This document shows, piece after piece, positions 7,538 to 63,735 of a stretch of 64,000 nucleotides of DNA. Under the pieces are notes generated by a model. The model saw only the letters and a program-made list of their open reading frames with translations, searched no databases and was not told the DNA's origin. A program made the position numbers and the translations under genes. This stretch comes from Escherichia coli (lineage in GTDB: Bacteria; Pseudomonadota; Gammaproteobacteria; Enterobacterales; Enterobacteriaceae): the NCBI RefSeq assembly GCF_001677475.2, contig NZ_CP015229.1; one strand, given 5' to 3'. Each line of letters starts with the position of its first letter. Within the stretch, counting starts at the first letter, position 1.

Positions 7538-7569
7538 ACGCAGAAGGTTATCCTTCTGCGTTTTTGTTT
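7538..7569 (+). terminator. Rho-independent terminator after sodB
   Basis: ACGCAGAAGG-ttat-CCTTCTGCGT followed by TTTTTGTTT; lies between sodB and convergent ydhP. Confidence 0.8.
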
Positions 7570-29140: not shown

Positions 29141-29171
29141 AAAATGGCGCACATTGTGCGCCATTTTTTTT
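29141..29171 (+). terminator. Rho-independent terminator after lpp
   Basis: AATGGCGCAC-att-GTGCGCCATT followed by TTTTTTT. Confidence 0.9.
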
Positions 29172-41653: not shown

Positions 41654-41838
41654 TTTCTCATCAGGCGGCTCTGCCGCCTGATTGTTAACCACCGCTAATT
41701 GATATTTGCTTGCTCTTCCCCATATTTTCCTGCTTACCGCCATTCAGCTGGTAGTACCTGTCGCAAATTCTTTACAGTTTTTAAACTAATGAGACGAATC
41801 TGATCGACGCAAAAAGTCCGTATGCCTACTATTAGCTC

Positions 41839-41944
41839 ACGGTTATAAATCAACATATTGATTTATAAGCATGGAAATCCCCTGAGTGAAACAACGAATT
41901 GCTGTGTGTAGTCTTTGCCCATCTCCCACGATGGGCTTTTTTTT
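41839..41944 (+). ncRNA. rprA: RprA small RNA (activator of rpoS translation)
   Basis: Matches the remembered RprA sequence ACGGTTATAAATCAACATATTGATTTATAAGCATGGAAATCCCCTGAGTG... ending in the terminator CCCATCTCCCACGATGGGCTTTTTTT. Confidence 0.9.
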
Positions 41945-58582: not shown

Positions 58583-58668
58583 CGAACAATCCTTTTGTGA
58601 TAAATGAACGGTTTGAGAAACACATTTCTGCGCATTTATCTTTGCATATTTAACCGGATGAAAAAAAC

Positions 58669-58684
58669 GGTGAATCGTTCAAGC
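58669..58684. promoter_or_regulatory. Putative Cra (FruR) activator site in the ppsA promoter
   Basis: GGTGAATCGTTCAAGC fits the Cra consensus RSTGAAWCSNTHHW. Confidence 0.45.
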
Positions 58685-58913
58685 AAATATATTTTTTACT
58701 TTTTAAGACTGATCCCAGCGTTGCGCAAATCTGCTCTCTTCGACAATTTCCACATAAACCATCGGTATAAACGAAACCATAAAAATGAAATGCTGTTTTC
58801 ATAAAAAATAAAATTGAAGGTTCATTTTATAATCCAGACATAACGTCCTACGCTTCTGTGCGTTTTTAATTTATGCTTTCATAGAATTATGTCTGCATCA
58901 CGGGAAGAACAAA

Positions 58914-59747
58914 ATGGATAATGCTGTTGATCGCCACGTTTTTTATATTTCTGATGGTACGGCAATAACTGCGGAGGTATTAGGACACGCAGTAATGTCA
59001 CAATTTCCCGTCACTATCAGCAGCATTACGCTGCCGTTTGTCGAAAATGAGAGCCGTGCACGGGCAGTGAAGGAGCAGATTGACGCAATTTATCACCAGA
59101 CAGGTGTGCGCCCGCTGGTCTTCTACTCCATCGTGTTGCCTGAGATTCGCGCCATCATCTTGCAAAGTGAAGGCTTTTGCCAGGATATTGTTCAGGCGCT
59201 GGTTGCCCCGCTACAACAAGAGATGAAACTGGATCCAACGCCGATTGCTCATCGTACCCATGGCCTTAACCCTAATAATCTCAATAAATATGATGCGCGC
59301 ATTGCGGCGATTGATTACACCCTCGCCCACGATGACGGCATTTCGTTGCGCAATCTGGACCAGGCTCAGGTGATCCTGCTCGGTGTTTCTCGCTGTGGTA
59401 AAACCCCCACCAGTCTGTATCTGGCAATGCAGTTTGGTATCCGCGCGGCAAACTACCCCTTTATTGCCGACGATATGGACAACCTGGTGCTACCCACGTC
59501 GCTCAAACCGCTTCAGCATAAATTGTTCGGCCTGACTATCGACCCAGAGCGGCTGGCGGCAATTCGTGAAGAGCGTCGGGAGAACAGTCGCTACGCCTCG
59601 CTTCGTCAGTGCAGGATGGAAGTCGCGGAAGTGGAAGCGTTGTACCGTAAAAATCAGATCCCGTGGATTAACAGTACCAATTATTCGGTAGAAGAGATTG
59701 CCACCAAGATCCTCGATATCATGGGTCTTAGCCGCCGAATGTACTAG
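58914..59747 (+). CDS. ppsR: PEP synthase regulatory protein (bifunctional kinase/pyrophosphorylase)
   Basis: 277 aa with P-loop GVSRCGKT; divergent from ppsA. Confidence 0.95.
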
Positions 59748-59758
59748 AGAACTAGTGC
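59741..59758. promoter_or_regulatory. TrpR operator of aroH
   Basis: GTACTAGAGAACTAGTGC matches the trp operator palindrome GTACTAGTT-AACTAGTAC; it overlaps the ppsR stop codon. Confidence 0.75.
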
Positions 59759-59903
59759 ATTAGCTTGTTTTTTTGTTATCATGCTAACCACCCGGCGAGG
59801 TGTGACACACCTCGCACTTGAAATCAGCAGCGATTGGTTTATCGTGATGCGCATCACTTCCCGGCAGTCCTGCCGTAGAAGCAACAAATTTCTGAGACTT
59901 GTA

Positions 59904-60950
59904 ATGAACAGAACTGACGAACTCCGTACTGCGCGTATTGAGAGCCTGGTAACGCCCGCCGAACTCGCGCTACGGTATCCCGTAACGCCTGGCGTCGCCA
60001 CCCATGTCACCGACTCCCGCCGCAGAATTGAAAAAATACTGAATGGTGAAGATAAGCGACTGTTGGTCATTATTGGCCCCTGCTCGATCCACGATCTCAC
60101 CGCTGCAATGGAGTACGCCACCCGTCTGCAGTCGCTGCGCAACCAGTACCAGTCACGGCTGGAAATCGTAATGCGCACCTATTTTGAAAAACCACGAACT
60201 GTTGTCGGCTGGAAAGGACTAATCTCCGATCCGGATTTAAACGGTAGCTATCGGGTAAATCACGGTCTGGAGCTGGCGCGCAAATTACTTTTACAGGTAA
60301 ATGAGCTGGGCGTCCCTACCGCGACTGAGTTCCTCGATATGGTGACCGGTCAGTTTATTGCTGATTTAATCAGTTGGGGCGCGATTGGCGCACGTACTAC
60401 CGAAAGTCAGATCCACCGTGAAATGGCTTCGGCACTCTCCTGTCCGGTAGGTTTTAAAAATGGTACCGATGGCAACACGCGGATTGCCGTAGATGCTATC
60501 CGCGCAGCCCGCGCCAGCCATATGTTCCTCTCGCCAGACAAAAACGGTCAGATGACCATCTATCAGACCAGTGGCAACCCGTATGGCCATATTATTATGC
60601 GTGGCGGCAAAAAACCGAATTACCATGCCGATGATATCGCCGCAGCCTGCAATACGCTGCACGAGTTTGATTTACCTGAACATCTGGTGGTGGATTTCAG
60701 CCACGGTAACTGCCAGAAGCAGCACCGTCGCCAGTTAGAAGTTTGTGAGGATATTTGTCAGCAAATCCGCAATGGCTCTACGGCGATTGCTGGAATTATG
60801 GCGGAAAGTTTCCTGCGCGAAGGAACGCAAAAAATCGTCGGCGGTCAGCCGCTCACTTACGGTCAATCGATTACCGACCCGTGTCTGGGCTGGGAAGATA
60901 CCGAACGCCTGGTCGAAAAACTCGCCTCTGCGGTAGATACCCGCTTCTGA
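59904..60950 (+). CDS. aroH: DAHP synthase, Trp-sensitive
   Basis: 348 aa from MNRTDELRTARIESLVTPAEL; the track ORF has an upstream extension. Confidence 0.97.
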   Translation: MNRTDELRTARIESLVTPAELALRYPVTPGVATHVTDSRRRIEKILNGEDKRLLVIIGPCSIHDLTAAMEYATRLQSLRNQYQSRLEIVMRTYFEKPRTVVGWKGLISDPDLNGSYRVNHGLELARKLLLQVNELGVPTATEFLDMVTGQFIADLISWGAIGARTTESQIHREMASALSCPVGFKNGTDGNTRIAVDAIRAARASHMFLSPDKNGQMTIYQTSGNPYGHIIMRGGKKPNYHADDIAAACNTLHEFDLPEHLVVDFSHGNCQKQHRRQLEVCEDICQQIRNGSTAIAGIMAESFLREGTQKIVGGQPLTYGQSITDPCLGWEDTERLVEKLASAVDTRF

Positions 60951-61081
60951 ATGCGTGCCCATTCCTGACGGAATGGGCACTTCTGCGCAACTTGTTGTCT
61001 TCTCAACACATTACTGCTTGCTCTGGCCCGCTATAATATTGATAATAAGAATCATTGTTATATCAATTATTATTAATTTTT

Positions 61082-63489: not shown

Positions 63490-63735
63490 GGTAACCGTCC
63501 CTCTCGAAGGATGTTTTTCAGTATCCGGCTAAAAGGGATGAGGCCATAAGACATAACAATTACAGAAGGAGTAACTTTCATTTGTTCCATGTTAACCACT
63601 TTTTCAGGGGTCCTTTTTTTAGATTATCCTGATTATAAACGAATAATCCATTTACGGAATTTTTGTCTGCAAAATACTACTGTATTCTGGAGTAAATTGA
63701 CGGCGATGTATCATCGCCGTCAATTTTTCGACATA

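Follow-up and report, generated by a model that had tools for sequence, protein, structure and literature searches.

The spacer between ppsR and aroH in Escherichia coli is considered here within a 64,000-nucleotide stretch of contig NZ_CP015229.1 (the window, to which all positions refer). The element in question is a perfect palindrome at 59795-59815 that lies between the two aroH promoters and that, judging from related genomes, appears to be maintained as a base-paired stem. Both flanking genes are on the + strand and were assigned from the list of open reading frames (ORFs) and the RefSeq annotation of matching genomes: the coding sequence of ppsR occupies 58914-59747, and that of aroH, which encodes the tryptophan (Trp)-sensitive DAHP synthase, occupies 59904-60950. 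The interval 59600-60000 was matched in 5,422 of 5,426 complete E. coli genomes at 95-100% identity, with the annotation ppsR followed by aroH, and coordinates in K-12 (U00096.3) are obtained by adding 1,728,531 to the window position (aroH at 1788435 in the K-12-like record). The ppsR-aroH stretch is present in a single copy per genome, which rules out a repeated or mobile element, and a covariance-model scan of 59500-60100 against Rfam gave no family match up to E = 10. Operator and palindrome both belong to a control region with two promoters that is already known for aroH. For comparison, 80 aroH loci were gathered, together with approximately 60 further upstream regions from a metagenome scan anchored on the second promoter, aroHp2.

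The TrpR operator and the two promoters

The sequence GTACTAGAGAACTAGTGC at 59741-59758, which we take to be the aroH TrpR operator of the established literature, spans -46 to -29 relative to the start of the first promoter, aroHp1, and by its position appears to overlie the -35 region of that promoter, a core promoter element. The first-pass annotation had placed the start of the operator 4 bp ahead of the TAG stop codon of ppsR (59745-59747), and this was confirmed. The core ACTAG-N4-CTAGT is exact at 59743-59756 and occurs nowhere else in the 64-kb window. As ppsR ends ATG TAC TAG (59739-59747), with a C-terminus (...RRMY*) that is kept among relatives, the left half-site of the operator is supplied by the last two codons of the gene and its stop (Met-Tyr-stop, ATG TAC TAR). 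The offset of -4 between operator and stop codon is retained in about 24 Enterobacteriaceae loci (tabulated by motif and offset, with L007 and L008 read directly from the sequence), which include Escherichia, Citrobacter, Enterobacter, Lelliottia, Pluralibacter, and Pseudocitrobacter as well as Cedecea, Shimwellia, Phytobacter, Siccibacter, and Mangrovibacter. Most Enterobacteriaceae loci have the operator upstream of aroH, as do those of Hafnia and Edwardsiella; a comparative motif scan did not find it at aroH in the Yersinia, Serratia, Rahnella, Erwinia, and Proteus loci. In these operator-less taxa ppsR ends in Met-Phe-stop or uses a TGA stop, and aroHp2 is still kept. Binding of the Trp-TrpR holorepressor at 59741-59758 rests on the classic literature; for the aroH operator, a network paper that draws on RegulonDB gives Grove and Gunsalus (1987) as the source. 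That the operator and the stop codon have bases in common seems to be an old and conserved arrangement and, as far as our literature search went, is a new point.

Two further observations concern the operator. Read as RNA, its palindrome would form a 10-bp hairpin of -11.4 kcal/mol with a run of seven U residues 6 nt beyond it (59738-59775); a terminator scan flags the structure as terminator-like for ppsR, the T-run being confined to the Escherichia/Citrobacter group. At the Citrobacter youngae locus L040 the operator lies 30 bp nearer aroH, and both the palindrome and the aroHp2 -35 segment are missing.

The primary paper on the two aroH promoters and the aroHp1 start is reportedly that of Hudson et al. 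from 1991; the names aroHp1 and aroHp2 are used in a preprint on CRISPR activation. An extended -10 element for aroHp1, TGtTATCAT, can be read on the + strand at 59774-59782, and its start is placed at approximately 59787 by back-calculation from the guide-RNA positions in the preprint (-70 and -91), calibrated on aroHp2. The same guide positions reproduce 59853 as the aroHp2 start and, for 59787, agree with the extended -10. The aroHp2 core promoter (59818-59845, + strand) was located by a promoter scan and comprises TTGAAA (59818-59823), a 16-nt spacer, and TATCGT (59840-59845); it is kept across Enterobacterales, including the taxa that lack the TrpR operator. Transcription from aroHp2 starts at 59853 on the + strand, leaving a 5' untranslated region of 51 nt (Kim et al., 2012). 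The supplement to that study lists this as the lone transcription start site (TSS) of aroH, at 1786408 of U00096.2, with 414 reads in M9 glucose, and the primer of a published aroH::gfp fusion, ATCACTTCC, begins at the same base.

With these starts, the palindrome occupies +9 to +29 of the aroHp1 RNA and -58 to -38, that is upstream, of aroHp2. The earlier placement of the palindrome in the aroH 5' leader is thus correct for the TrpR-controlled promoter aroHp1 and incorrect for aroHp2. Attenuation through a leader peptide was ruled out for the aroHp1 leader, which has no short ORF with Trp codons; the long ORF that opens in frame at 59781 begins before the aroHp1 +1 and appears to be an artefact. 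The aroHp2 region also varies within the species. Position 59829, in the aroHp2 spacer, is a common A/T polymorphism in E. coli, carried by three sampled genomes. Within 59770-59840, 3,217 genomes depart from the window, and this polymorphism probably explains many of them; a second polymorphic site, at about 59770, lies in the same range. E. coli Ec-U10 (L083) shows its first difference at about 59831, and from about 59839, a position in the aroHp2 spacer, its divergence is complete; this genome has no aroH annotation there and probably carries an insertion or rearrangement in the promoter.

A covarying palindrome between aroHp1 and aroHp2

The palindrome was originally described as a near-perfect one at about 59795-59813 with 9-bp arms. 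It is real but longer: 59795-59815 reads GCGAGGTGTG A CACACCTCGC, with a perfect arm of 10 nt on either side of a single central base. As RNA of the + strand, the 21-mer folds with -14.2 kcal/mol (z = -5.1), a value equaled by none of 200 shuffles; within the first 36 nt of the aroHp1 RNA the hairpin reaches -15.6 kcal/mol (z = -3.8), and it is retained in both the minimum free energy and the centroid folds of the whole aroHp1 leader. Of perfect palindromes whose arms measure 10 nt or more and whose loops do not exceed 4 nt, the window holds six distinct examples where Markov shuffles would lead one to expect 0.4, so that palindromes of such size are about 15 times more common than in the shuffles; the others that were looked at follow genes. 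This excess over shuffles, together with a fold energy beyond that of shuffled sequences, argues that the palindrome is more than chance. Binding of TrpR to it was ruled out by the lack of a CTAG core. Five further perfect palindromes within these size limits lie at 7538-7561, 29143-29165, 41660-41682, 41844-41867, and 63699-63721.

The hairpin takes up the room between two promoter elements, the -10 of aroHp1 and the -35 of aroHp2, stopping 2 nt short of the -35. Among the relatives, three stem types occupy the same columns, each ending 2 nt before the aroHp2 -35. The first, shared by E. coli and a Citrobacter-like lineage, has the arms GCGAGGTGTG and CACACCTCGC; the second, found in unassigned contigs whose AroH is closest, at about 89-92%, to that of Enterobacter/Lelliottia, has the 5' arm GCAGGGCG and the 3' arm CGCCCTGC; and the third, in Enterobacter/Lelliottia, pairs (T)CGGGGC(G) with (C)GCCCCG(A) across loops of 4-6 variable nt. 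When 24 distinct orthologous sequences were aligned with MAFFT without structural guidance, the arms fell in the same columns, and the eight shared pairs were paired in 93.8% of cells compared to 31-47% when the partners were slid. Five of the eight pairs carry compensatory double changes, in 23 cells, a result reached by none of 500 shuffles. The comparative evidence suggests that pairing of the hairpin is under selection in several Enterobacteriaceae lineages, with support that is real, though not overwhelming. Since the Enterobacter loops differ in both sequence and length, a hairpin fits these data better than a protein site. As far as the literature search went, a covariation-supported hairpin between aroHp1 and aroHp2 appears to be new.

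Conservation of the element has also to be set against the possibility that it has no function of its own and that the symmetry is a by-product, for example of a decayed ancestral CRP site, kept because E. coli is young. Among 5,422 E. coli genomes, 5,368 share the same 31 nt at 59790-59820; invariance over so short a stretch within one species is, however, weak evidence of function. Losses of the element occur too. In E. albertii 8 of the 21 positions differ and one compensatory pair is kept, leaving -7.5 kcal/mol and neither a good hairpin nor a CRP match, and C. youngae lacks approximately 30 bp at the hairpin position; both would fit a dispensable sequence. Cedecea and L147 likewise show no comparable structure. 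This explanation is at odds with the roughly 15-fold excess of palindromes over shuffles, with pairing that covaries across three lineages, and with the identical 21-mer in the Citrobacter-like contig L117 (AroH 96% identical to that of C. youngae). The flanks of that contig have diverged, which argues that the element predates E. coli. We regard a lack of function as improbable.

A second conserved stem-loop is predicted at the 5' end of the aroHp2 mRNA, at +5 to +29 (59857-59881, + strand), where the sequence folds as CUUC-C-CGGCA-GUCC-UGCCG-UA-GAAG. By direct pair count, its inner stem (CGGCA/UGCCG) is paired in 89.7% of cells in 34 sequences, with compensatory changes at three pairs; RNAalifold predicted no structure on the alignment of the aroHp2 leader, outlier rows being the cause.

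CRP-type sites around aroHp2

The palindrome also contains a CRP-type 16-mer, TGTGACACACCTCGCA (motif TGTGAcacaccTCGCA), at 59801-59816, identified with a position weight matrix (PWM) and listed in a published chromatin immunoprecipitation sequencing (ChIP-seq) study. Its center lies at -44.5 of aroHp2 and at about +22 of aroHp1. A second CRP-type site, H2 (CGTGATGCGCATCACT, 59843-59858), found in the same two ways, spans the aroHp2 -10/+1 with its center at -2.5, at about +64 of aroHp1. A distance of 42 bp separates the two sites, which bracket the aroHp2 core promoter. The PWM was built from the sites of Haycocks et al. (2015) minus those at aroH (training range 5.3-21.5 bits, median 13.3), and, although trained without them, it scores H2 at 14.5 bits and the palindrome site at 12.9 bits, ranks 1 and 3 of 63,985 window positions. 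In enterotoxigenic E. coli H10407, aroH is among 111 high-confidence CRP ChIP-seq targets, and the motif calls there are AGTGATGCGCATCACG and TGCGAGGTGTGTCACA, the reverse complements of 59843-59858 (H2) and 59801-59816, respectively (Haycocks et al., 2015).

These data support a reading in which cyclic AMP (cAMP)-CRP would bind TGTGAcacaccTCGCA together with H2 and lower aroH transcription on poor carbon sources, with the hairpin as secondary. Both sites lie under the high-confidence peak. The peak centers of Table 1 in that study (NC_017633) fall 195 ± 17 bp below their motifs in RefSeq coordinates in nine of nine control peaks, and, corrected for this offset, the aroH peak agrees with the midpoint between the two sites (z = -0.29). 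H2 on its own would account for the peak just as well (z = +0.96), the palindrome site on its own less well (z = -1.55), and the two sites cannot be told apart at this resolution. The center at -44.5 is also off the positions from which CRP activates (-41.5, -61.5, -71.5, and so on), and the site abuts the aroHp2 -35 without covering it. The CRP motif of the palindrome is kept in L117 (12.9 bits) and in contig L152 (9.2 bits), where the substitutions break a stem pair and spare the CRP core; in the same columns, however, the hairpins of Enterobacter and of the GCAGGGCG type contain no CRP motif (-16 to -19 bits). Equally, a CRP operator leaves the perfect symmetry about 59805 and the covariation unexplained. 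Literature searches on CRP function at aroH returned the ChIP-seq table only, with no expression data from crp mutants, and the RegulonDB-based network paper has TrpR as the sole regulator of aroH. We consider a CRP operator as the principal role of the palindrome possible but somewhat doubtful.

Comparison among genera adds to both sides. A strong CRP site (15.6-17.7 bits) is present in the same spacer of four other genera (Pluralibacter, L011, L012, and Phytobacter; loci L009, L011, L012, and L017), approximately 7 nt upstream of the aroHp2 -35 and without a strong hairpin. Where H2 could be scored, that site is 48 bp from it compared to 42 bp in E. coli; it thus lies 6 bp further upstream and is not positionally homologous. 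From the sequences at hand, the hairpin and a strong CRP site seem nearly mutually exclusive across genera, a point that is new as far as the literature search went. H2 itself scores 13-17.7 bits in most of the Enterobacterales loci that have retained the conserved aroHp2 region, whether or not the TrpR operator is present; the exceptions, with a degraded site or none, are a few Enterobacteriaceae together with Photorhabdus, Xenorhabdus, Arsenophonus, and Erwinia. This conservation suggests an old CRP input to aroH, which the network paper does not show.

The first-pass annotation had offered an RNA hairpin or a protein site as the role of the palindrome, and had held that a transcription start downstream of it, combined with no protein binding, would reduce it to chance symmetry. 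A downstream start does exist, that of aroHp2 at 59853, but a CRP ChIP-seq site is listed inside the palindrome, and the symmetry is not chance, because the covariation points to selected pairing. Both of the roles offered have support. They may even be combined, in that the 21-bp element would be a CRP operator as DNA, for control by carbon status, and a selected stem-loop as RNA, with hairpin and CRP site serving as interchangeable separators of aroHp1 and aroHp2 across genera and H2 marking an uncurated ancient link between CRP and aroH across Enterobacterales. This combination in full is speculative and, in our estimate, unlikely.

A separate observation concerns the gene upstream of ppsR. 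Genomic systematic evolution of ligands by exponential enrichment (SELEX) identified ppsA as a new CRP target (Shimada et al., 2011). The PWM finds no CRP site of at least 9.5 bits in the ppsA-ppsR spacer (58583-58913), and the nearest strong CRP sites to ppsA are the two at aroH, approximately 0.9 kb past that spacer and 1.2 kb from the ppsA start codon.

Proposed function and known systems

The position of the palindrome downstream of ppsR raises the question of whether it serves that gene and limits the read-through of ppsR (and aroHp1) transcripts across aroHp2, be it by pausing transcription, by blocking 3' exonucleases, or as a U-poor terminator that leaks. Serratia, Erwinia, and some Yersinia, which have neither the operator nor aroHp1, carry a hairpin with a T-run terminator between ppsR and aroHp2, and in Enterobacteriaceae the GC-rich hairpin is the sole strong structure after ppsR and always lies 2 nt before the aroHp2 -35. 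Likewise, aroH is trailed, 6 nt past its stop codon, by a perfect palindrome with 10-bp arms at 60956-60979, TGCCCATTCC TGAC GGAATGGGCA, which has no T-run and is not called by the terminator scan. A classic intrinsic terminator is ruled out for the palindrome itself by the lack of a T-run: its tail, ACUUGAAAUC (ACTTGAAATC), has no U-tract, and the terminator scan gives no call. The Term-seq tables of Adams et al. (2021) contain no + strand 3' end for ppsR or aroH, although low expression of ppsR could hide one. Furthermore, a terminator 8 nt past the aroHp1 start would defeat that promoter, and the genera that have aroHp1 but lack the hairpin show no alternative terminator for ppsR. A role as the 3' hairpin or insulator of ppsR is therefore unlikely in our view, though not as improbable as a lack of any function. 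The same study reports an abundant minus-strand antisense RNA with its 3' end within ppsR, at about 59117 of the window (1787648 in K-12), and this RNA could originate in the ppsR-aroH spacer (Adams et al., 2021).

Our first choice, which we hold tentatively and with less than even confidence, is that the palindrome acts as RNA, in the form of a 5'-proximal stem-loop that protects the aroHp1 leader. This reading leads because the pairing appears to be selected and because only RNA from aroHp1, or from read-through of ppsR, would contain the hairpin. A stem-loop of about -14 to -16 kcal/mol would form 8 nt from the 5' end of the aroHp1 transcript and would shield its 117-nt leader from decay that depends on the 5' end or proceeds by scanning, while the aroHp2 mRNA would be served likewise by its own conserved stem-loop at +5 to +29. 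The DNA of the palindrome may also be bound by cAMP-CRP along with the stronger H2, a second role that would be compatible with that of the hairpin.

Several points weigh against a protective stem-loop. Classic protective 5' hairpins have fewer unpaired nucleotides ahead of them than the eight present here. The compensatory changes represent approximately six independent events in a test that is not phylogeny-aware, and strong hairpins are missing from several genera that carry aroHp1, namely E. albertii, Cedecea, L147, and the genera that have a CRP site in its place. In contig L152 one pair has become G.G through changes in both partners; the stem is weaker for it, and the CRP core is intact. 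The aroHp1 start does not appear in the genome-wide TSS table for M9 glucose (Kim et al., 2012), and, because aroHp2 alone is listed there, few aroH transcripts may carry the hairpin. The literature search found no experiment on the palindrome hairpin. Weighing all of this, we rank the stem-loop at the 5' end of the aroHp1 transcript first, followed by the CRP operator, the 3' hairpin or insulator of ppsR, and a lack of function, in that order.

As for what is at stake, aroH figures in textbooks as part of the trp regulon, and earlier publications already cover its operator, its two promoters, and the CRP motif calls. If the hairpin and both CRP-type sites were functional, entry into the aromatic pathway would gain two inputs, one from carbon status through cAMP-CRP and one from mRNA structure, and strains engineered to produce aromatic amino acids would carry control elements that are currently unaccounted for. 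The use of the last codons of ppsR as one half of an operator is a tidy case of bases shared between coding and regulatory functions. Nothing reported here overturns current understanding.

Each of these elements can be compared with a known system. With regard to the TrpR operators of trpEDCBA, aroH, and trpR, 59741-59758 is the aroH operator itself, with ACTAG-N4-CTAGT over the -35 of a sigma-70 promoter, and there is no difference to report; the added point is that the Met-Tyr-stop of ppsR provides a conserved left half-site. CRP can repress by overlapping a core promoter, as at cyaA P2 and crp. The aroH region resembles such overlapping or tandem arrangements in having two motifs of the TGTGA-N6-TCACA type under a ChIP peak, one of them across the aroHp2 -10/+1, whereas the palindrome site differs in its center at -44.5, which is neither class I nor class II, and in not being kept in the sister hairpin lineages. 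Intrinsic terminators share with the palindrome a GC-rich stem of 8-10 bp, a short loop, and a place downstream of a gene, here ppsR, however, the palindrome has no U-tract and no mapped 3' end, and it sits inside the transcribed leader of the next promoter. Closest to the role that we favor are the stabilizing 5' stem-loops of the ompA type, which act as obstacles to scanning by RNase E. The likeness lies in stable, covarying stem-loops predicted near the 5' ends of both the aroHp1 and aroHp2 transcripts, whereas the putative aroHp1 hairpin differs in its eight unpaired 5' nucleotides and in its absence from some genera that possess aroHp1.

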